DNA of 64,000 bases from an uncultured Christensenellaceae bacterium (GTDB lineage Bacteria > Bacillota > Clostridia > Christensenellales > UBA3700). Shown here piece by piece: positions 52,639 through 62,021 of this stretch (position 1 is the stretch's first letter; each line of letters begins with the position of its first letter). Location of the stretch: assembly GCA_963931165.1 (NCBI GenBank), contig OZ006985.1, positions 1,365,643 to 1,429,642 of the forward strand, written 5' to 3'. The translations under genes were made by a program, and so were the position numbers. Below the pieces are notes generated by a model. That model was not told the DNA's origin, ran no database searches, and saw only the letters and a list, made by a program, of their open reading frames with translations.

Positions 52639-52714
52639 CGGGGTGTGGCGCAGTTGGTAGCGCGCGTGGTTTGGGACCATGAGGCCGGGAGTTCGAGTCT
52701 CTTCACCCCGACCA
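52639..52714 (+). tRNA. tRNA-Pro (TGG)
   Basis: Cloverleaf with acceptor CGGGGTG/CACCCCG, anticodon loop TTTGGGA, T-loop GTTCGAGTC. CCA encoded. Confidence 0.9.
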
Positions 52715-52729
52715 ATGCAATAAAATTGT

Positions 52730-52806
52730 GGGCCATTAGCTCAGTTGGTTAGAGCAACCGGCTCATAACCGGTCGGTCCAAGGTTCGAGTCCTTGATGGC
52801 CCACCA
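52730..52806 (+). tRNA. tRNA with CAT anticodon (elongator Met or lysidine-type Ile2)
   Basis: Acceptor GGGCCAT/ATGGCCC, anticodon loop CTCATAA. There is no initiator signature (1-72 paired, no GGG/CCC anticodon stem). C4-C5 in the acceptor stem hints at Ile2. CCA encoded. Confidence 0.85.
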
Positions 52807-52821
52807 CAAACAAGATAATAT

Positions 52822-52898
52822 GGTTCGGTAGTTCAGCTGGTTAGAACGCTAGCCTGTCACGCTAGAGGTCGAGGGTTCGAGTCCCTTCCGAATCGCCA
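52822..52898 (+). tRNA. tRNA-Asp (GTC)
   Basis: Acceptor GGTTCGG/CCGAATC, anticodon loop CTGTCAC. CCA encoded. Confidence 0.9.
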
Positions 52899-52940
52899 AA
52901 ATATCTTATGAGTGGTAGCGATATCACTCATAAAAAATAT

Positions 52941-53016
52941 GCCTCGGTAGCTCAGTCGGTAGAGCAGGGGACTGAAAATCCCCGTGTCGGTGGTTCGATT
53001 CCGCCCCGAGGCACCA
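52941..53016 (+). tRNA. tRNA-Phe (GAA)
   Basis: Acceptor GCCTCGG/CCGAGGC, anticodon loop CTGAAAA. CCA encoded. Confidence 0.9.
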
Positions 53017-53036
53017 AAGCGAAAGATCGCGATCGG

Positions 53037-53112
53037 GCTGGTGTAGCTCAACTGGCAGAGCAGCTGATTTGTAATCAGCAGGTTGCTGGTTCGATTCCGG
53101 TCACCAGCTCCA
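53037..53112 (+). tRNA. tRNA-Thr (TGT)
   Basis: Acceptor GCTGGTG/CACCAGC, anticodon stem-loop GCTGA-TTTGTAA-TCAGC. CCA encoded. Confidence 0.9.
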
Positions 53113-53116
53113 ACAA

Positions 53117-53201
53117 GGGAAGGTTCCCGAGCGGCCAAAGGGAGCAGACTGTAAATCTGCCGACCATGTCTTCGGTGGTTCGAATCCACCCCTTCCCACC
53201 A
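53117..53201 (+). tRNA. tRNA-Tyr (GTA), long variable arm
   Basis: Acceptor GGGAAGG/CCTTCCC, anticodon loop CTGTAAA, variable arm CGACCATGTCTTCGGTG. CCA encoded. Confidence 0.9.
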
Positions 53202-53255: not shown

Positions 53256-53667
53256 AACGAACTACGGCCCTAAAAGGGCGTGGTTCGGCTGTCCGCCGAA
53301 GGCGGCAGCTTTCGCGAAGTTGCTGCCGATCGGCTCTCGAAGGCGAAAAGCGGGAAGCGAACCTCCACTTGATTGAGATTACTCATTGCGGAAAATTATT
53401 ATAAAGCTTAATATTTTGTTTAGTTACTGCTGTTAGATGCCACATTGCTGTCGACTATTGATTATCAATTTATTATCGCGTATGCATAGCAAGCGATCTC
53501 TCATTCAGCTTTAACTTCACGAATTATTCACGTAATCGTGTTTCGACAATCGATATTCTTCTGTTAATTCGATATAAATTTTGTAAAAATATTGACACAT
53601 TATATCATAACGTGATAATATAGTAAAGAACTATCAGTGTGGTTCAATACTAAGTGGGAGAATGTCT

Positions 53668-54879
53668 ATGGAAAACGATCAGTCCTTTCAAAACGGACAG
53701 GGCGTGACGACAGGGCAGCAGGCTCCGCAATTTGTGCAGCCGGCACAACAGCCGATGCAACAGCCGCAATTTGCGCCGCAGCAGCCTGCCCAACCGGCAC
53801 AACAGCCGACGCCGCAACCTGTCTATCAGCAGCCCGTCTATCAACAGCCGGCGCAGCAAGTTCAGCCTGTCTATCAGCAGCCCGTGCAACAACCGGTGCA
53901 GCAGCAATATGCGCAGCCGCCTCAACCGGTCGCACAGTCGCCGCGTCTTGTCAACGGCAAGAATTGCGCCTATTGCGGCACACTCAATGTGGCGGATGCG
54001 GTCTATTGCTACAATTGCGGCAACTACATCGACCCGGCGTATGCGGCGAGGACGTGCCAGACGTGCCATACGCTCAACGCTCCGGGTGTCGCCTATTGCG
54101 TAAAATGCGGTTCGACGCTTGCGGCGGGACGTCAGGCGATGCCGGCGCAGCAGGGCGCGGTCATGGGCTACAACCCCGCAGAGACGCCCGACACCTACGA
54201 GTCGTCCTATGACGGCGGCGCGGTGTCCAACTTCTTGCACTTGCTCGTGGTGATCTTGTTTTCGTCGCTTACATTGTTTTTGGCGATGCCGGCGCTCGTG
54301 TGCTGGTATTTCCGTTGGGAGACGTCGCACGTCAGGATCAACGGCAGACAGCTTGAATTTGACGGCAAGGGCATACAGCTTTTCGGCAAATTGGTGTTGT
54401 GGTCGTTTTTGACGCTCATCACGATCGGGCTCTACGGCATCTTCAGAATGCCGCTCAACCTGCAGCGCTGGCGCACGAGCCATACCCACGTTGCCGGTTA
54501 CAGGACCCCGGACGGCAACAAGGGCGAATCCAAGTTTGACGGCAGCATCTTCGGACTTTGGGGCGTCAATATCGTCAGAGTTCTTTGCTTGCCTTTGTCG
54601 GTCATCACGCTTGGCTTCATGGGCTCCGTGTCGAAGAGATACAGATACGCATGGTTTGCAAAGCGCAAGATCTACGACGGTCAGACTATGAAGTTCGACG
54701 GCACCAGCGGTCAGTTGTGGGGTAAGAGGATAGTATGGCTTTTGCTCACGATCATCACGATCGGCATCTACACCGCATGGATGATGAACAACGTCAAGAA
54801 GTGGAGATACAAACACACTAAGTTCACTGCGCCCGGAATGTTTCCGGCGCCCGCGATACAGCAGCCTCTCGGCAAATAA
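53668..54879 (+). CDS. Q/P-rich, double zinc-ribbon, DUF898 (YjgN-like) membrane protein
   Basis: GTGGGAG RBS favours ATG 53668 over 53662. QQPVYQQP repeats; CAYCG..CYNCG and CQTCH..CVKCG ribbons; two repeats of a TM pair with FDG..G.LFG/LWG typical of DUF898. Confidence 0.7.
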   Translation: MENDQSFQNGQGVTTGQQAPQFVQPAQQPMQQPQFAPQQPAQPAQQPTPQPVYQQPVYQQPAQQVQPVYQQPVQQPVQQQYAQPPQPVAQSPRLVNGKNCAYCGTLNVADAVYCYNCGNYIDPAYAARTCQTCHTLNAPGVAYCVKCGSTLAAGRQAMPAQQGAVMGYNPAETPDTYESSYDGGAVSNFLHLLVVILFSSLTLFLAMPALVCWYFRWETSHVRINGRQLEFDGKGIQLFGKLVLWSFLTLITIGLYGIFRMPLNLQRWRTSHTHVAGYRTPDGNKGESKFDGSIFGLWGVNIVRVLCLPLSVITLGFMGSVSKRYRYAWFAKRKIYDGQTMKFDGTSGQLWGKRIVWLLLTIITIGIYTAWMMNNVKKWRYKHTKFTAPGMFPAPAIQQPLGK

Positions 54880-54924
54880 CAAAAATCAGGCGGTCGCCGT
54901 AGACGGAATGTCTGCGGCGATCTT

Positions 54925-55194
54925 TCAGCACGGCTTGGGGGATGGCGGAAGTTCTCTTCCGAGTTCGACGAGAATGGTGTCTTCGCCTATCCGCACGATG
55001 CACTTCCACGGCACAAAGACGCTGTCGCTCCCTGTGATGTTTTTGAGGAACTTGCGGTCGCCCGGCACTATGATCCCGGTGATTTGACCGCCGGGAGTGA
55101 AAGCCATATCCAAAATTTTCCCCAGCCGCTTACCGTCGACGACGTTGACGGTCTCTTTTTCTTTGAGTTCGCAAAAGGTCAGATCGTTCAACAT
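54925..55194 (-). CDS. ylmC: YlmC/YmxH family sporulation protein (PRC barrel)
   Basis: CELKEKETVNVVDGKRLGKILDMAF...FVPWKCIVRIGEDTILV. GGAGGTG RBS. Confidence 0.85.
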   Translation of the reverse strand: MLNDLTFCELKEKETVNVVDGKRLGKILDMAFTPGGQITGIIVPGDRKFLKNITGSDSVFVPWKCIVRIGEDTILVELGRELPPSPKPC

Positions 55195-55307
55195 ATTTCA
55201 CCTCCGCATATCGTATGACGAGTCGCGCCGACGTATGACATTTTGACAAAATTCGCCCTGCGGCGCATACGGCAGTTGGCGCGGCATATATTGAAAGCGG
55301 TGATATT

Positions 55308-56003
55308 ATGCTCGGATTGCTCGTATTGTTGTCCAACATTTTGTTTTTCAGCGGATTTGTCCGCAACGAAAACCGCTTTCCGCACCCCCTTCCGCGCGAA
55401 GAGGAGGAGCGGCTCGTTCAAAAGTATCGCTCGGGCGATCGCTCGGCGCGCGACGAACTCATCAATCACAACATGCGCCTCGTCGTCCACATCGCAAAAA
55501 AATATTCGCAGGGTGCGGATGTCGAAGAGCTCGTCTCGATCGGCGCGATCGGCTTGATCAAGGCGGTCGAAAACTACACGCCGGGTCGCGGCACGCACCT
55601 TGCGACATTCGCCGCGAAGTGCATAGAGAACGAGATCTTGATGGCTTTGCGCAAGACCAAAAAGTTCAAGGCGGACAAATCGCTTTACGAGCCGGTCGGT
55701 TTTGACAAGGACGGCAACGAGGTCGCACTCATCGAATTGCTCGCGCAGGACGAAGAGAGCGTTCTGGGCATCGTCGAGAACAATATATTGCGCGAAAAAT
55801 TGACCGCATTGATCAAAAAGGTGCTGTCCGGCAGAGAACTCGACATCATCGTCATGCGCTACGGTCTCGGAGACGAAAAACGCTTCACCCAAAATGAGAT
55901 CGCCGAAAAGTGGGGCATATCGCGCTCATACGTTTCGAGGATCGAAAAAAAGGCGCTTTTCAAACTCCGCGTCCATATCGAGCAAAACGGATTGAGACCG
56001 TGA
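55308..56003 (+). CDS. sigK: RNA polymerase sporulation sigma factor K (pro-sigma-K), uninterrupted
   Basis: Hydrophobic pro-sequence MLGLLVLLSNILFFSGF, then VRNENRFPHPL, HNMRLVVHIAKKY, TFAAKCIENEILMALRK, GISRSYVSRIEKK. Confidence 0.92.
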   Translation: MLGLLVLLSNILFFSGFVRNENRFPHPLPREEEERLVQKYRSGDRSARDELINHNMRLVVHIAKKYSQGADVEELVSIGAIGLIKAVENYTPGRGTHLATFAAKCIENEILMALRKTKKFKADKSLYEPVGFDKDGNEVALIELLAQDEESVLGIVENNILREKLTALIKKVLSGRELDIIVMRYGLGDEKRFTQNEIAEKWGISRSYVSRIEKKALFKLRVHIEQNGLRP

Positions 56004-56259
56004 TCGCCGCATTTTGGTGGCAGCGCTCGGTCGACAAAAAGATTTTTACAAAAAATCGGCGCTGTCGCTTGACAATTTTCAAGACAAATGAAAAAATTTT
56101 TTCTCATACGATATCGGCATTTTTCAAAGATCGACAAAAAATGTCGTCGCATTCTCTTGACAAGTTAGTTAGCTTTTCAAAGATATTTGCCAATATATTT
56201 ACATTGAGAGGCGAGAGAAGTAATTTGGCGATAGGCAAGCGATTAATGGCTCCGTAAAA

Positions 56260-56291
56260 GACAAAAAAGTACCGCATCGAAAGTGATGCGG
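56260..56291 (-). terminator. rnpB terminator
   Basis: Minus strand CCGCATC-ACTTTC-GATGCGG followed by TACTTTTTTG. Confidence 0.75.
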
Positions 56292-56301
56292 AACAAAATT
56301 T

Positions 56302-56626
56302 GCAAGCGCAGTCTGTAAGCCGGGTTCTGTCGAGGATAAACATCTATCTGAGCCAAGCGTTGCCGCAGGGCTTAAGCGATTGAGGGACGCGGCAGGCGAC
56401 CGATCCGTCCTTGTCTCTTGCATCGAGTGGGGTTTACAGGGCCTCCCGCGTTGCCGCAGGAGCGGTGAGCTCTTACCTCGCCTTTCCATCCTTACCCTTG
56501 CGGGCGGTTTATTTCTGTTGCACTTTCCTTGGAGTCGCCTCCACCGGTAACTAGCCGGCACTCTGCCTTATGATGCCCGGACTTTCCTCCGTAGTCTTTC
56601 ATACGGCGTTTATCCGACTGCCTTGC
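56302..56626 (-). ncRNA. rnpB: RNase P RNA (type A-like)
   Basis: Minus strand carries GAGGAAAGTCCGGGC (P4 5' strand), GGTAAGAGCTCACC, GTAAACCCCAC and ACAGAACCCGGCTTA (P4 3' strand). P1 pairs GCAAGGCAGTC with GACTGCGCTTGC; P2 pairs GGATAAAC with GTTTATCC. Confidence 0.9.
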
Positions 56627-56632
56627 GAAAGA

Positions 56633-56661
56633 ATTATAACACACTTCCATAGTTCTTGCAA
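56633..56661 (-). promoter_or_regulatory. rnpB sigma-A promoter
   Basis: Minus strand: -35 TTGCAA (56661-56656), 17 nt, -10 TATAAT (56638-56633), 6 nt, then GCAAGGCAG (RNA 5' end). Confidence 0.75.
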
Positions 56662-56705
56662 GTCTTTGTTTTGAAAGTGGCTTGGTCTTAAAAATTTTAT
56701 TGGAA

Positions 56706-56829
56706 CGCACTCGCTGTAACTGCTCGTGCGACAAACGAGTCGCCTCCACCGGTAACTAGCCGGCACTCTGCCTTATGATGCCCGGACTTTCCTCTATGAA
56801 TAATCATAGCGTTTATCCAACTGCCTTGC
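56706..56829 (-). pseudogene. truncated RNase P RNA paralogue (P1-P5 5' portion only)
   Basis: GCAAGGCAGTTGGATAAACGC (56829-56809), its own P3-like hairpin CTATGA-TTAT-TCATAG, then 58 nt identical to rnpB (56794-56737 = 56589-56532). After that it diverges into GCGAC-TCGTTT-GTCGC and the CGCAC..GTGCG element. Confidence 0.7.
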
Positions 56830-56835
56830 ATGCTT

Positions 56836-56864
56836 ATTATACTAAACTTGCTGTTCGAAATCAA
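56836..56864 (-). promoter_or_regulatory. sigma-A promoter in front of the truncated rnpB paralogue
   Basis: Minus strand: -35 TTGATT (56864-56859), 17 nt, -10 TATAAT (56841-56836), 6 nt, GCAAGGCAG. The geometry is identical to the real rnpB promoter. Confidence 0.6.
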
Positions 56865-57024
56865 TCTTTTTCGCACAACGAACAAACAATCGAAGTTCCG
56901 TTGTCAGTTCGCTGTTTGGTTACTGCTCGCGTTTTACGTTTTGGGATTCCACGGCGGCGCACTCGCTGTAACTGCTCGTGCGATTGAGTGCTTGGTTACA
57001 TCTGAAAAACTTGTTTGCCGATCG

Positions 57025-57094
57025 GCGTTTATCCAACTGCCTTGCGAGAGGATCATTGCATACTTCCATAGTTCTTGCAAGTCTTTGTTTTGAA
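57025..57094 (-). repeat. third copy of the rnpB promoter/5'-leader module (degenerate -10)
   Basis: 57094-57062 repeats 56675-56643 (includes -35 TTGCAA at 57080-57075). The -10 is AATGAT (57057-57052), followed by 6 nt and GCAAGGCAGTTGGATAAACGC (57045-57025). The sequence then becomes unrelated. Confidence 0.6.
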
Positions 57095-57128
57095 TGTAGT
57101 GCTTGCGTTTTTACCTCGGCTTATTTTC

Positions 57129-57157
57129 TTGCAAAAAAAATGATTTTCTTATATAAT
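57129..57157 (+). promoter_or_regulatory. sigma-A promoter giving a leaderless ruvX transcript
   Basis: -35 TTGCAA (57129-57134), 17 nt, -10 TATAAT (57152-57157), 7 nt (AAAAAAT), ATG 57165. No SD. Confidence 0.55.
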
Positions 57158-57164
57158 AAAAAAT

Positions 57165-57599
57165 ATGAGACATTTGGGTATAGATCTCGGAGAGGCTCGG
57201 ATAGGCATTGCGACGTGCGGGGAGAGCGAGATGTTCGCTTCGCCGCAGGAGACTTACAAATGCCGCGGACGCGCCGCCGATCTTGCGTACATCGCCGACT
57301 ATTGTCGGATGACGGGCGCAGGCAGGGTGGTGATAGGTTTGCCTCTCAACATGGACGGCTCGACGGGTCCGAGGGCGCAAAAGGTAATGGACTTCGGCGC
57401 TGAGCTCGCGGCAATGGTCGACGCAGAGGTCGTCTATCAGGACGAGAGACTGACCACCGTGACCGGCGAGAACATGTTGATCGAGGCGGGCGTGAGGCGC
57501 GAAAAGCGCAAGCAGGTGATCGACAAGATCGCCGCGGCGATCATTCTCGAGACCTATCTCGACTCAAAACATAAAAGCGAAAACAGACAACAATCATAA
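57165..57599 (+). CDS. ruvX: Holliday junction resolvase-like / pre-16S rRNA nuclease RuvX (YqgF)
   Basis: MRHLGIDLGEARIGIA, GLPLNMDGS, ERLTT, AAAIILE. Confidence 0.92.
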   Translation: MRHLGIDLGEARIGIATCGESEMFASPQETYKCRGRAADLAYIADYCRMTGAGRVVIGLPLNMDGSTGPRAQKVMDFGAELAAMVDAEVVYQDERLTTVTGENMLIEAGVRREKRKQVIDKIAAAIILETYLDSKHKSENRQQS

Positions 57600-57609
57600 A
57601 GGAGCAAAC

Positions 57610-58038
57610 ATGAAAGACGAAGAAAAGAAGATGAAGGACGAAGAGTCCTGCGCGTGCGGTCATCATCATGACGGCGAGTGCGATTGCGGATGCGACCACG
57701 GCGACGAGGTCAACATTTTGACCTTGACCGACGAAGACGGCAACAGCCGCGACTACTACGAGCTCGAAGTGCTCGAAATGGACGGCGCCGAATATACGGT
57801 CATGCAGCCCGTCGAGCTTGACGAGGACATGAGCGAAGACGAGGTCTTGATCTATCGCAACGTCTATGACGAGGACGGCGAGTTTGTCAGCTACGATCCC
57901 GAGATCGACGAAGCTGTCGCGGACAAGATCATCGACGAGATCAACAAAATGATCGAAGAGGAATCGCTGATCGGCGACGATGATGACGACTACGGCGATC
58001 CCGACGACGGCGACTGCGGCTGCGGCAACGACAGATGA
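57610..58038 (+). CDS. DUF1292 family protein with Cys/His-rich termini
   Basis: Core ILTLTDEDGNSRDYYELEVLEMDGAEYTVMQPV; canonical position after ruvX. N-terminal CACGHHHDGECDCGCDHGDE and C-terminal DCGCGNDR. Confidence 0.75.
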   Translation: MKDEEKKMKDEESCACGHHHDGECDCGCDHGDEVNILTLTDEDGNSRDYYELEVLEMDGAEYTVMQPVELDEDMSEDEVLIYRNVYDEDGEFVSYDPEIDEAVADKIIDEINKMIEEESLIGDDDDDYGDPDDGDCGCGNDR

Positions 58039-58071
58039 TCGAAAAAACGCGGCAAAAGTACGCAAAAACGT

Positions 58072-58101
58072 TTGCGTACATTGACTTTGCTGTGCTATAA
58101 T
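58072..58101 (+). promoter_or_regulatory. extended -10 promoter upstream of rpsB-tsf
   Basis: -35 TTGCGT (58072-58077), 18 nt, TGcTATAAT (58093-58101). About 85 nt of leader before AAGGAGA and ATG 58191. Confidence 0.5.
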
Positions 58102-58190
58102 CATTCAGGCAAAAAATAAACACTCGGGTCAGTCAGGGGCTGCCAGCTCTAAGAGCCGCTCCAAGCGAAAACCCGGGAAAAGGAGAAAAA

Positions 58191-58985
58191 ATGGCAGTAG
58201 TATCAATGAAGAGCCTGCTCGAAGCAGGCGTGCACTTCGGTCACCAGACCAAGAAGTGGAACCCCAAGATGTCCAAGTACATCTATTCTTCCCGCAACGA
58301 GATTCACATCATCGATCTTCAGATCTCGGTCGAGCATGTCGAGAAGGCTTACGCCTTTGTCAGAGACATGGCGAAGCAGGGCAAGACCGTGCTGTTTGTC
58401 GGCACCAAGAAGCAGGCGCAAGACGCGATCAAAGAAGAGGCTGAGCGCTGCGGCATGTACTACATCAACAAGAGATGGCTGGGCGGCACGTTGACCAACT
58501 TCAACACCATCCGCACCCGCATCGACAGACTCAACAAGATCAATCAAATGGAGATGATCGGCGAGTTCGACCTTCTGCCCAAGAAGGAAGTCGCTCTGCT
58601 CAAAAAGGAGAGGGACAAGCTCGAGAACAACCTCGGCGGCATCAAGAACATGACTTCGCTTCCGGGCGTGATGTTCGTCGTCGACATCAAGGCTGAAGAG
58701 ATCGCGGTCAAAGAAGCTCGCAAGCTGGGCATCCCCATCGTCGGTCTCGTCGACACCAATTGCGATCCCGACCTTGTCGACTATGTCATCCCCGGCAACG
58801 ACGACGCGATCAGAGCGATCAAGTTGATCGCCGGCATCATGGCAAACGCGGTCATCGAGGCAAACGAGGGCATCGCCTATTCGATCGACGAAGAAGAGAA
58901 GACCGAAGATGAGGCTCCCGCAGAGGAGAGCGCTCCCGCGGCGGAAGAAGTCGTCGCCGAAGAAGTCGAGGAGATCAAGGAGTAA
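58191..58985 (+). CDS. rpsB: 30S ribosomal protein S2
   Basis: [32 protein letters not shown], with an acidic C-terminal tail. Confidence 0.97.
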
Positions 58986-58987
58986 TT

Positions 58988-59869
58988 ATGAACTTCACCA
59001 ACAAGGATATTATGGATCTGCGCGCCAAGACCGGCGTGGGTATGATGGACTGCAAAAAGGCTTTGATCGAAGCCGACGGCGATATGGACAAAGCGGTTGA
59101 CATTCTCCGCGAAAAGGGCATGGCTACCAGCGCGAAGAGAGCGGGCAAGATCGCCTCTCAAGGCATCGTCGACGCCTACGGCAAGGACGGCGTTTACGCG
59201 CTCGTCGAGGTCAATTGCGAGTCCGACTTTGTCGCAAAAGGAGATCAATTCAAGGCGTTCGTCCGCGAGATCGCTCAGTACATCGTCGACGCGGCTCCGG
59301 CAAGCGTCGAGGACGTTGCGGCGGCAAAGGCGGATCTGCTCAACGAGACCGTCGCCAAGATCGGCGAAAAGATCGTCGTCAGAAGGTTTGAAAGATATGT
59401 TGCGGCGGACGGCGCGGCTGTCAGCAGCTACATCCACATGGGCGGCAAGATCGGCGTCATGGTCGAGACTGTCGGCGCTTCCGACGAGGTCGCTCACGAC
59501 ATCGCTTTGCAGATCGCTGCGGCAAATCCCGACTATGTCACGATCGCCGAAGTTCCGGCAGACAGGGTCGAAAAGGAGAAAGAGATCCTCAAAGTGCAGG
59601 CTCTCAACGAGGACAAGCCCAAGCCGATGAACATCATCGAGAAGATGATCGAGGGCAGGATCCACAAGTTCTACAAGGAGGTCTGCCTGCTCGAACAGCC
59701 GTTCGTCAAGGATCAGGACAAGTCCGTCGGCGCCTATCTCAAGGCAAACGGCGGCGCCAAGGTCAACCGTTTCGTCCGCTTCACGATGGGCGAAGGCTTG
59801 GAGAAGAAAGAAGAGAACCTCGCAAACGAGGTCGAGGAACAGATCGCCAAAGCAAAGGCGGGCAAGTGA
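58988..59869 (+). CDS. tsf: translation elongation factor Ts
   Basis: IMDLRAKTGVGMMDCKKAL, VEVNCESDFVAK. Confidence 0.97.
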   Translation: MNFTNKDIMDLRAKTGVGMMDCKKALIEADGDMDKAVDILREKGMATSAKRAGKIASQGIVDAYGKDGVYALVEVNCESDFVAKGDQFKAFVREIAQYIVDAAPASVEDVAAAKADLLNETVAKIGEKIVVRRFERYVAADGAAVSSYIHMGGKIGVMVETVGASDEVAHDIALQIAAANPDYVTIAEVPADRVEKEKEILKVQALNEDKPKPMNIIEKMIEGRIHKFYKEVCLLEQPFVKDQDKSVGAYLKANGGAKVNRFVRFTMGEGLEKKEENLANEVEEQIAKAKAGK

Positions 59870-59875
59870 GCTTGC

Positions 59876-59899
59876 GGGGGACTTCGGTCCCCCTTTTTT
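59876..59899 (+). terminator. terminator after tsf
   Basis: GGGGGAC-TTCG-GTCCCCC followed by T6. Confidence 0.85.
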
Positions 59900-59914
59900 C
59901 AACAAAAAATATAG

Positions 59915-60643
<729 letters not shown>

Positions 60644-60649
60644 GAGACG

Positions 60650-60677
60650 GGCGGCGCGGTTGCGCCGCCTATTTTTT
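60650..60677 (+). terminator. terminator after pyrH
   Basis: GGCGGCGC-GGTT-GCGCCGCC followed by TATTTTTT. Confidence 0.85.
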
Positions 60678-60688
60678 GCGCAAAAGCA

Positions 60689-60717
60689 TTGTAAAATGCG
60701 CGTATATTTGATATAAT
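60689..60717 (+). promoter_or_regulatory. sigma-A promoter upstream of frr
   Basis: -35 TTGTAA (60689-60694), 17 nt, -10 TATAAT (60712-60717). Confidence 0.6.
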
Positions 60718-60744
60718 GCAATCAGCAACATTGCGAGGTAAACT

Positions 60745-61323
60745 ATGATCAACACCGAAAACATCGATGTTCTGGAACTCTTCGACGAGTTCGAAACCAA
60801 GCTCGAACACGGCGTTCAAAGCCTTCAAGGCGAATTTGCCAAGCTCAAAGCGGGCAGGGCGAATCCGCACATTCTCGACAAGATCACCGTCGACTACTAC
60901 GGCACTCCGACCCCGATCAAGCAGGTCGGCAACATCAGCGTGCCCGAGGCGAGGCTTCTCGTCATCAGCGTTTGGGACACGAGCATTCTCAAAAACGTCG
61001 AGAAGGCGATCATTGCCGCCAACATCGGCATCACCCCGGGCAACGACGGCAAGGTCATACGTCTCGTCTTTCCCGAATTGACGCAGGAGACGCGCAAGAG
61101 CCTGTGCAAGGAGATCAAGGCTTTGAGCGAGAGCGTCAAAGTGTCGCTTCGCAACGCGCGCCGCGACGCCAACGACGCGATCAAGAAACTCAAAAAGGAC
61201 AGCGCGATCACCGAAGACGACGCGGCGGCTTACGAGAAAGAGGTCGACAAGATCCTCTCCGCCAAGATCGCCGAGATCGACGCGATGACCAAGAACAAAG
61301 AAGACGAGGTAATGACCGTTTGA
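60745..61323 (+). CDS. frr: ribosome recycling factor
   Basis: LKAGRANPHILDKITVDYYGTPTPIKQ, LRNARRDAND. Confidence 0.96.
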   Translation: MINTENIDVLELFDEFETKLEHGVQSLQGEFAKLKAGRANPHILDKITVDYYGTPTPIKQVGNISVPEARLLVISVWDTSILKNVEKAIIAANIGITPGNDGKVIRLVFPELTQETRKSLCKEIKALSESVKVSLRNARRDANDAIKKLKKDSAITEDDAAAYEKEVDKILSAKIAEIDAMTKNKEDEVMTV

Positions 61324-62021
61324 CAGACAAAGTCACGCCGCGCCACATCGCGTTCATCATGGACGGCAACGGCAGGTGGGCAAAAAAGCGTCTTCTGCCG
61401 CGCAAGGCAGGGCACAGACAGGGCGTTAAGGCGCTCGAAAAGGTCGTCGACGCGTGCGAAAAGCGCGGCGTCGAGATGGTCACGTTTTATGCGTTTTCGA
61501 CCGAGAATTGGGCGCGTCCTCAAGATGAGATCGACGCGCTCTTCGCGATGGTCGCCGAGTTTGCCGACACCCGCCTCAAAGAGTATGTCCAAAGGGGTCT
61601 GCGCATTTTGTTCATCGGCGATCTGACGCCGCTGCCGCAAAAGACTCGGGACGCGTGCACCCGCATCGTCGAGGCGGCGAAGGGCAACAAGGGGATGATC
61701 GTCTGCATCGCGCTCAATTACGGCGGCAGGGACGAGATCGTCCGTGCAGTCAGGACGCTGTTGCAGTCGGGACTGAAAGACGTCGACGTCGAAACGCTTT
61801 CCGACTGCATGTACACCGGCGGCTTGCCCGATCCCGACGTCATCGTCCGTTCGAGCGGCGAGAAGAGATTGAGCAATTTTATGCTGTGGCAGGCGGCATA
61901 TTCCGAATTTGTGTTCAGGGACGAGCTTTGGCCCGACTTTGACGAAAAGATCATTGACGCGGTGCTCGAAGAGTACGCTTCGCGCGACCGCAGATACGGC
62001 AGTGTAAAGAGGTTGAACTGA
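61320..62021 (+). CDS. uppS: isoprenyl transferase (undecaprenyl diphosphate synthase)
   Basis: TTG start overlapping the frr stop (TTGA). HIAFIMDGNGRWA, FSTENWARP, RSSGEKRLSNFMLWQ. Confidence 0.9.
   Translation: MTDKVTPRHIAFIMDGNGRWAKKRLLPRKAGHRQGVKALEKVVDACEKRGVEMVTFYAFSTENWARPQDEIDALFAMVAEFADTRLKEYVQRGLRILFIGDLTPLPQKTRDACTRIVEAAKGNKGMIVCIALNYGGRDEIVRAVRTLLQSGLKDVDVETLSDCMYTGGLPDPDVIVRSSGEKRLSNFMLWQAAYSEFVFRDELWPDFDEKIIDAVLEEYASRDRRYGSVKRLN

Follow-up and report, generated by a model that had tools for sequence, protein, structure and literature searches.

Upstream modules at the rnpB locus of Candidatus Ornithoclostridium faecigallinarum are probably orphaned rnpB 5' ends left by recombination anchored in the conserved core

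Introduction

Stable-RNA genes with tandem promoters are well known, an example being rRNA with its promoters P1 and P2. For effector-immunity loci of type VI secretion (T6SS) and for rhs loci, Kirchberger et al. (2017, PMC5361080) described how sequential displacement via a conserved anchor leaves arrays of orphans. That paper cites Jackson et al. (2009) for the 'C-terminal displacement' of rhs as well as de Vries and Wackernagel (2002) and Prudhomme et al. (2002) for homology-facilitated illegitimate recombination (HFIR), which is also covered in PMC3240628. In this study we analyzed a stretch of 64,000 nucleotides (nt), referred to as the window (contig OZ006985.1, positions 1,365,643 to 1,429,642, assembly GCA_963931165.1), in which rnpB, the gene of the RNase P RNA, is preceded by two modules that repeat its promoter and 5' end. 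A genome-collection scan named the organism as Candidatus Ornithoclostridium faecigallinarum (Christensenellales) from the chicken gut, a species described in PMC8035907. In a search of the literature, neither a bacterial rnpB with a partial duplication nor integration at rnpB was reported; the matches were fungal-mitochondrial or irrelevant. We conclude that the upstream modules are probably orphaned rnpB 5' ends which arose by recombination anchored in the conserved core of the gene, and not a purpose-built decoy.

Results

Individual loci from public assemblies are designated by L-numbers (L001 etc.), and r denotes rnpB nt, so that r22 stands for nt 1-22 and r94 for nt 1-94. Feature coordinates are listed in Table 1. 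The full-length gene of the window contains both strands of P1-P18 and scored above the gathering score of the class A RNase P RNA family RF00010 (cmscan: 56299-56625, 258.1 bits, E 5.8e-83, gathering score 100, model positions 1-367). A second RNase P match was absent from 55800-57600 even at E<=10, and for the spacers Rfam returned only RNase P and noise at this threshold but no known RNA family. The proximal promoter P is homologous to the rnpB promoter of the simple-locus strains L008/L009.

An earlier note on this DNA, made from the letters alone, had listed the two upstream modules and the repeats around them; a self-comparison together with a promoter scan recovered all of these elements base for base. 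In module 1, 57105-57023 aligned with 56684-56604, i.e. promoter and rnpB nt 1-22, at 88% identity (blastn, E 5e-24). Here TTGCAA (57080-57075) is followed after 17 nt by a decayed -10 of AATGAT (57057-57052), and G1 stands at 57045, with rnpB nt 1-22 at 57045-57024; the scan did not call a promoter at this place. Module 2 (56829-56737) aligned with rnpB nt 1-95 (56626-56532) at 89.6% identity (blastn, E 1e-30), including a perfect block of 58 nt (56794-56737 equals 56589-56532, 100%). Its P3 reads CTATGA-TTAT-TCATAG and that of rnpB CCGTA-TGAAAGAC-TACGG. Module 2 does not qualify as a class A RNase P paralogue: it matches rnpB only up to nt 94, within the 3' strand of P9, and lacks the 3' partners of P1, P2, P4, P5 and P7 as well as the conserved regions of the specificity and catalytic domains. 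Besides, a block of 26 nt termed B (TCGCACGAGCAGTTACAGCGAGTGCG) occurs twice, with 0 chance matches in 100 shuffles, and no other copy was found in the 64-kb window when up to 3 mismatches were allowed. B was rejected as a dispersed repeat, a repetitive extragenic palindrome (REP) or a miniature inverted-repeat transposable element (MITE): there were the two window copies, no viral contig, and one metagenome contig, which is the rnpB locus. The repeat spacing is 205 nt, the period being made up of the Y unit described below and the r1-94 repeat.

The population comparison covered about 14 strains. An exact-protein look-up of RuvX in public assemblies yielded ten loci of the same species and a look-up of the sigma factor seven further ones. 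Among strains with identical RuvX, the sigma-to-ruvX distance ranged from 742 to 1832 bp. Two units account for the modules. Unit X consists of sp1-B-sp2-P2 and is preceded by a copy of rnpB nt 1-22, unit Y consists of GTTTG-B-sp3-P and is preceded by a copy of rnpB nt 1-94 or 41-94. Across the strains X and Y occur alone, in either order or inverted, and some strains have a single rnpB only. Class A is the simple locus up-P-rnpB (L008, L009), and class B has X only (up-P-r22-X-rnpB; L010, L111, L117). The window belongs to class C (up-P-r22-X-r94-Y-rnpB) together with L003 and L112-L116; class D (L001, L007, L091) is like C with a middle module lacking the -10 of P2 and r1-40. Class E carries an insert of 730 nt and a promoter P' (up-730-nt insert-P'-r94-Y-rnpB; L005, L133), which are also present in class F, where the X/Y order is reversed relative to the window (up-insert-P'-r94-Y-r22-X-rnpB; L004, L006). 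In class G a D-like cassette is inverted between the flanks (L002, partially L118). The locus hence has the properties of an orphan array: the copies share a conserved anchor, the orphans stand in tandem on the variable side of an intact gene, and strains vary in number and order of identical units with identical junctions (classes A-G). One possibility named in the earlier note, serial partial duplication, was supported in that the repeats are products of such duplication or of displacement.

The same note had cautioned that such tandem repeats can be assembly errors, a concern that did not hold. The 1161-bp sigma-ruvX intergenic region of the window (56004-57164) was identical in seven other contigs, among them L003, a contig of 1.8 Mb, and L112-L116 from ENA assemblies. 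The contig names of these loci are of Flye, Canu, hifiasm, SPAdes and MEGAHIT-k87 types, from which, rather than from reads, we infer that some of the assemblies are long-read. An assembly artefact or a chimera of co-occurring strains is therefore extremely improbable, although the DNA is of metagenome origin, contigs of related species frequently break inside rnpB and small-k assemblers could be misled by the identical 58-nt repeat. The same arrangement was obtained by different assemblers, including MEGAHIT at k=87, which exceeds the repeat length, and other arrangements were replicated in independent samples (L004=L006, L001~L007, L008~L009). As a separate observation, short-read contigs systematically end in or beside rnpB throughout the genus (L011, L012, L092-L098, L100, L101, L104-L110). 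Since rnpB is 91-97% identical among co-occurring species, many metagenome-assembled genomes, including the GTDB representative of the species, have no intact rnpB locus.

The clearest case of unit turnover is L111. Its identity to the window is 100% both along 7319 nt, a stretch that reaches from the sigma side through rnpB, and from ruvX onward, and it lacks exactly one 205-nt repeat period, so that P2 directly precedes its sole rnpB. As one unit is missing despite clonal identity, units are gained and lost on the timescale of clonal divergence. L010 likewise lacks exactly the 205-nt unit, and its P2 promoter together with the initial 94 nt of its gene matches module 2 at 100%. In sequence, the window equals L010 plus one 205-nt period, which sets the 5' 94 nt apart from the remainder of an L010-type gene. 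The hairpin that distinguishes module 2 from rnpB was found elsewhere in complete genes: P3b (CTATGATTATTCATAG) is the P3 of the full-length, sole rnpB of L010, L005 and L091, and the P3b gene of L005 scored 260 bits in Rfam compared to 258 for the window rnpB, which carries P3a. A third P3 variant (CCGCGCGACCCGCGG) was seen in the fragment copy of L005. P3b is thus an allele and not a paralogue-specific recoding.

The promoter of module 2 is genuine, as the earlier note had supposed. P2 is the sole rnpB promoter in L010, L111, L117, L004/L006 and L012, a strain of the sister species, and a third species without modules (L132) natively has a P2-like promoter (TTGATTTCG...GTATAAT). Since rnpB is essential and P2 is its only promoter in L111, P2 must be competent. 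For the window strain we infer that P2 is active, with transcripts that would read through to rnpB.

These findings bear on the proposal that module 2, or r(41-94) plus B, is a functional truncated paralogue, i.e. a small RNA which regulates RNase P by titrating RnpA, by competing for pairing with the 3' half of the RNase P RNA or otherwise. It would draw on the bona fide promoter P2, on the occurrence of r(41-94)-GTTTG-B in two species at about 97-100% identity and on the B hairpin stem, which survives a change from A-U to G-C. The dedicated paralogue RNA of ~120 nt envisaged in the earlier note did not find support. No terminator was detected between module 2 and rnpB in the scan, so a discrete RNA of this size is unsupported, and there is no conserved transcription unit, as the module of class D and of the sister species lacks P2 and P1-P3. 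The module-2 RNA folds in an unremarkable way (z = -1.07). The fragment is missing entirely in five of the ~14 strains (L008, L009, L010, L111, L117), and copies of it are mutated at P4 and P8 positions which are universally conserved, with changes never seen in a functional copy, namely GCCGAC in P8 (L004/L006) as well as GTCCTGGC in the conserved P4 strand and GAATGCC in the fragment of L122. Moreover, the -10 of module 1 is TATAAT in class D and AATGAT, GATGAT or AATAAT in classes B and C. The private mutations, the decayed -10 and the strains without the fragment point to relaxed constraint and dispensability, contrary to the idea that the module has a needed function. The 5' 94 nt of rnpB presumably also lack the conserved regions of the 3' half that contact RnpA in the known holoenzyme, which counts against a truncated paralogue as well. 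An independent small regulatory RNA gene is disfavoured on the same points, as there is a promoter but no terminator of its own and no conservation across strains. The 100% identity is explained equally by gene conversion from, or recent exchange with, an invariant core. Overall, we regard a functional paralogue as rather improbable.

The sister species is the closest one (RuvX 85%, sigma factor 89% identical), and its upstream region was reached from the sigma side, since most contigs approached from RuvX end within rnpB. Its architecture is class-D-like in the opposite orientation to sigma/ruvX, in the order degenerate promoter with an r22-like copy, sp1', B', sp2', an AT-rich stretch, r(41-94), GTTTG, B', promoter and rnpB. 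Unequal crossover can be observed directly here: in L128 and L123 a whole unit of 361 nt is duplicated, L130 has a junction mediated by B, L121 a duplication of 74 nt, and in L122 a stretch of 53 nt is deleted. Three more species of the genus, represented by L013, L099/L100 and L132, possess one rnpB each and no modules; both orientations occur. The question raised in the earlier note, whether relatives share the modules, is thus answered in two ways: many strains and the sister species have them, others carry a single rnpB.

L012 (sister species, L012:26-356) has an rnpB that is a mosaic of the two species, its P2 promoter and nt 1-35 being of the faecigallinarum type and nt 127-328 of the sister type. 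All 9 informative sites within nt 14-35 are window-like, with P2 upstream as well, and all 12 informative sites within nt 127-328 are sister-like. The crossover consequently lies within nt 36-126, the core that holds the 58-nt block, and this whole stretch is invariant in every functional rnpB copy of both species. The breakpoints agree with those of an orphan array, as the L012 crossover falls into the anchor and L111 and the window differ by one repeat period. With the core as crossover zone, perfect identity beside a different hairpin is explained without selection on the module. The earlier argument that a 58-nt identity next to a recoded hairpin speaks against neutral decay is therefore not upheld, P3b being an ordinary allele and the core being both invariant and a site of crossover.

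Several points weigh against the view that the upstream copies are recombination relics only. For the two species, identity amounts to 44-69% at four-fold degenerate sites and to 52% in a control intergenic region. Despite this neutral benchmark, the architecture r22-sp1-B-sp2-r(41-94)-GTTTG-B-promoter-rnpB is kept in both, with 88% identity in B, ~79% in the first ~62 nt of sp2 and 100% in r(41-94)-GTTTG, whereas sp1, the remainder of sp2 and sp3 are unalignable, unlike the ~90-nt island formed by B and the start of sp2, with its identity of about 80-88%. Both B copies have changed together from CGCAC/GTGCG to CGCGC/GCGCG (A-U to G-C) with the stem kept, which is a single event. In r(41-94), the invariant functional copy can keep up the identity by conversion or exchange; neither can explain the conservation of the single-copy island, and the pattern is unexpected for pure junk. 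To judge from the sequence, B or the island may be functional, for example as an upstream element of the P2-type promoter.

The repeats could accordingly be by-products while B and the island are a functional cis-element, such as an operator, a UP-like element or an insulator, that was copied with each duplication of a promoter-bearing unit. This would fit the conservation of the island far above the neutral benchmark, its position upstream of P2 or of TTGAAA-17-TATTAT in the sister species, the location of B, which is always upstream of a promoter at about 55-75 nt from the -35 of P, and the concerted evolution of the two B copies. Against it, the island lies at unequal distances from the downstream -35 in the two species (about 39 nt and about 3 nt), rnpB is expressed without B in L008, L009 and three other species of the genus, there is no known binding protein, and covariation is limited to one pair. 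RNAalifold supported only the B hairpin of the island, with one compensatory pair; the hairpin is thermodynamically ordinary (z = -1 to -1.6) and has no U-tract. The island was rejected as coding sequence on inspection, because a between-species indel shifts the frame. We consider such a cis-element unlikely; if functional, B and the island would represent a new cis-element in the expression of RNase P RNA. The same small chance is given to a broader version, with selection acting on the whole of [B - ~62-nt island - promoter - rnpB nt 41-94 - GTTTG - B], a unit kept in both species across saturated neutral divergence. The unit could then be an autoregulatory leader in which decoy P4-P9 5' strands flanked by B hairpins modulate folding or maturation of the RNase P RNA that is transcribed from upstream promoters, or alternatively a recombination-based promoter-switching device for an essential ribozyme gene. 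A residual function of the conserved B and island element together with the retained core fragment likewise has only a slim chance of being correct.

The discrete units also raise the question of site-specific integration, with X and Y being remnants of integrative elements or miniature ones. These would target rnpB at nt 22/23 and 94/95 and restore the gene with a promoter and 5' end of their own, B serving as the recombinase site. The junctions are indeed identical and the units occur in either order (window versus L004/L006), each has a promoter and is flanked by direct rnpB repeats, and both contain the near-palindrome B; the integration of SXT into prfC at its 5' end provides an established precedent (PMC2791158). 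Nevertheless, no recombinase gene was found at or near the locus, whose neighbours encode the sigma factor, RuvX, DUF1292, RpsB and Tsf and no integrase, and the units of only about 110-190 nt contain no open reading frame (ORF). No strain has a large sigma-ruvX insertion when both flanks are searched, the maximum being 1832 bp, and the 730-nt insert within this largest gap encodes only an orphan ORF and has no plasmid or phage match. B and the island had no matches among viral contigs, and the rnpB locus was the sole metagenome match for B. Changes in order and copy number are all explained by homologous recombination among the rnpB, P and B repeats. Integration footprints therefore appear very doubtful to us.

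Further rearrangements were noted around the gene. The 730-nt insert (L004:3250-3960, L005, L006, L133, L134) sits at a point matching window ~57108 and contains an orphan ORF of 116-148 amino acids (aa), followed by the third rnpB promoter P' (TTGCAT-17-TGTAAT) and an orphaned r1-94. The 116-aa ORF had no Pfam or PHROG match, and its relatives were found only at the rnpB locus. Within Ca. O. faecigallinarum the rnpB cassette is inverted in L002/L118; the inverted cassette has a different terminator, and the left breakpoint, directly after GTCGAGGTAAAA, is shared with the 730-nt insert. Among the sister species, the orientation relative to sigma/ruvX is + in three species and - in two (L002, L118, L012, L014/L099, L092 and L132 compared). 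In the sister species (L120:820-1100), TTGTCAAGACATCTTT is repeated three times in the interval from the rnpB terminator to ruvX. A motif related to it, TTGTCAAG, occurs twice downstream of rnpB in the window (56068 and 56156, CTTGACAA on the + strand), and one of these copies coincides with the right-hand breakpoint of the inversion in L002. Small tandem duplications were seen inside otherwise functional rnpB genes, namely 9 nt in L001 (GGCAACGCT; P18 region, intergenic ~795-815) and a 13-nt repeat at the 5' end in L121 (GTCGGGCAAACGC); they are either real helix length variants or assembly slips.

Strain identity also changes at this position. When window 53600-61500 was compared with L001-L010, nucleotide identity was ~99% in the part towards ruvX-rpsB-tsf and 93-97% in the part towards sigma with the switch at rnpB, which suggests a region-wide sweep or a recombination boundary. 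A window-specific import was rejected as the cause, as the step is present against all strains and is a regional property. Farther away, a cluster of six tRNA genes lies at window 52639-53198 (+), ~3 kb from rnpB. At 53662-54879 (+) the window encodes a 405-aa protein that has zinc-ribbon motifs, DUF898-like membrane repeats and an N-terminus which is repetitive and rich in Q/P; the length of the protein is strain-dependent (398-416 aa; 238 aa in L006).

Table 1. Features of the rnpB locus, with positions counted from the first letter of the window.
Feature	Position	Strand	Basis or remark
rnpB intrinsic terminator	56272-56291	-	sole terminator-like site in 56150-57250
Full-length rnpB, class A RNase P RNA, P3a allele (CCGTATGAAAGACTACGG)	56299-56626	-	cmscan RF00010
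Proximal promoter P, TTGCAA-17-TATAAT with TG extension	56633-56661	-	promoter scan 10/12
Y unit	56627-56736	-	GTTTG 56732-56736, B copy 2 56706-56731, sp3 56685-56705, promoter P region
Module 2, orphaned rnpB nt 1-94, P3b allele	56737-56829	-	blastn and L010 comparison
Promoter P2, TTGATT-17-TATAAT	56836-56864	-	promoter scan 10/12
Island, B copy 1 (56958-56983) and first ~62 nt of sp2	56896-56983	-	cross-species alignment, neutral benchmark
sp1 spacer; junction r22/sp1	56984-57022	-	locus dissection
Module 1, promoter and rnpB nt 1-22	57024-57080	-	88% copy of 56684-56604
Divergent ruvX promoter	57129-57157	+	right-hand limit of variable region
ruvX (RuvX)	57165-57599	+	right-hand limit of variable region

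Discussion

In the history that we favour, the invariant rnpB core (about nt 36-126) would serve as the anchor of homologous recombination in Ca. O. faecigallinarum and its closest sister species. Across this anchor, front ends consisting of the promoter and P1-P3 would be exchanged between alleles, strains and species. Two ancient junctions, nt 22/sp1 and nt 94/GTTTG-B, may have left the partial 5' copies upstream of rnpB. Both junctions are common to the two species, and the search for a donor context of sp1, B and sp2 gave none; the primary events were probably illegitimate joining or partial tandem duplication. Once paralogous copies were present, out-of-register homologous recombination could add, delete, reorder and amplify units. 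The window would then be an L010-type allele (P-r22-X-P2-rnpB, P3b), the first 94 nt of which were separated from the rest by the 205-nt unit, and this unit would have supplied promoter P and the P3a front end. Module 1 is likely to be an older, decaying relic, namely the oldest displaced promoter. P2 most likely acts as a second, upstream promoter that gives rise to a 5'-extended rnpB precursor and not to a discrete RNA of ~120 nt.

If this history is correct, the locus is a natural example of an essential conserved ribozyme gene whose promoter and 5' helices are swapped as a cassette, even between species. The invariant catalytic-core sequence would be the crossover site, and strings of orphaned 5' ends would remain. 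Partial rnpB matches upstream of rnpB should then be annotated as relics and not as paralogues. The structure of the locus would also explain the contig breaks at rnpB in the genus. Furthermore, the mosaicism can confound typing or phylogeny based on rnpB, and such typing would mislead in this genus.

By analogy, the closest published mechanism is the sequential displacement through a conserved anchor (PMC5361080). As in the T6SS and rhs loci, there is a conserved anchor, the resident module would be displaced by an incoming one and survive beside the gene as an orphan, and the arrays vary in number and order between strains, later shuffled by homologous recombination. In contrast, rnpB is an essential non-coding RNA, and its displaced end is the 5' end with the promoter, the mirror image of the 3' end in rhs. 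Unlike immunity genes the rnpB orphans are of no obvious benefit, and the units comprise only about 100-200 nt.

The SXT/R391 integrative and conjugative elements at prfC are similar in that they insert in the 5' end of a conserved gene, which is then expressed from newly supplied upstream sequence (PMC2791158). However, SXT is an element of ~100 kb with a tyrosine integrase and attP/attB, whereas for the rnpB locus no recombinase, element body or copy that is extrachromosomal or at another site was found. In HFIR, an anchor in the rnpB core and one illegitimate joint would yield the junctions r22/sp1 and r94/GTTTG-B and leave the gene complete. Displacement at rnpB was possibly started in this way, although the junctions are old and common to two species and a partial tandem duplication is an equally good origin.

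As with tandem promoters of the rRNA type, P2 and P are both sigma-70-type and stand in series before a stable RNA gene with no terminator between them. They differ in that P2 would be a displaced former promoter, the transcript of which would carry the duplicated 94-nt fragment in its leader. Taken together, the rnpB locus is real, well replicated and unusually dynamic, and compared with these systems it is a new variation on a known evolutionary process.

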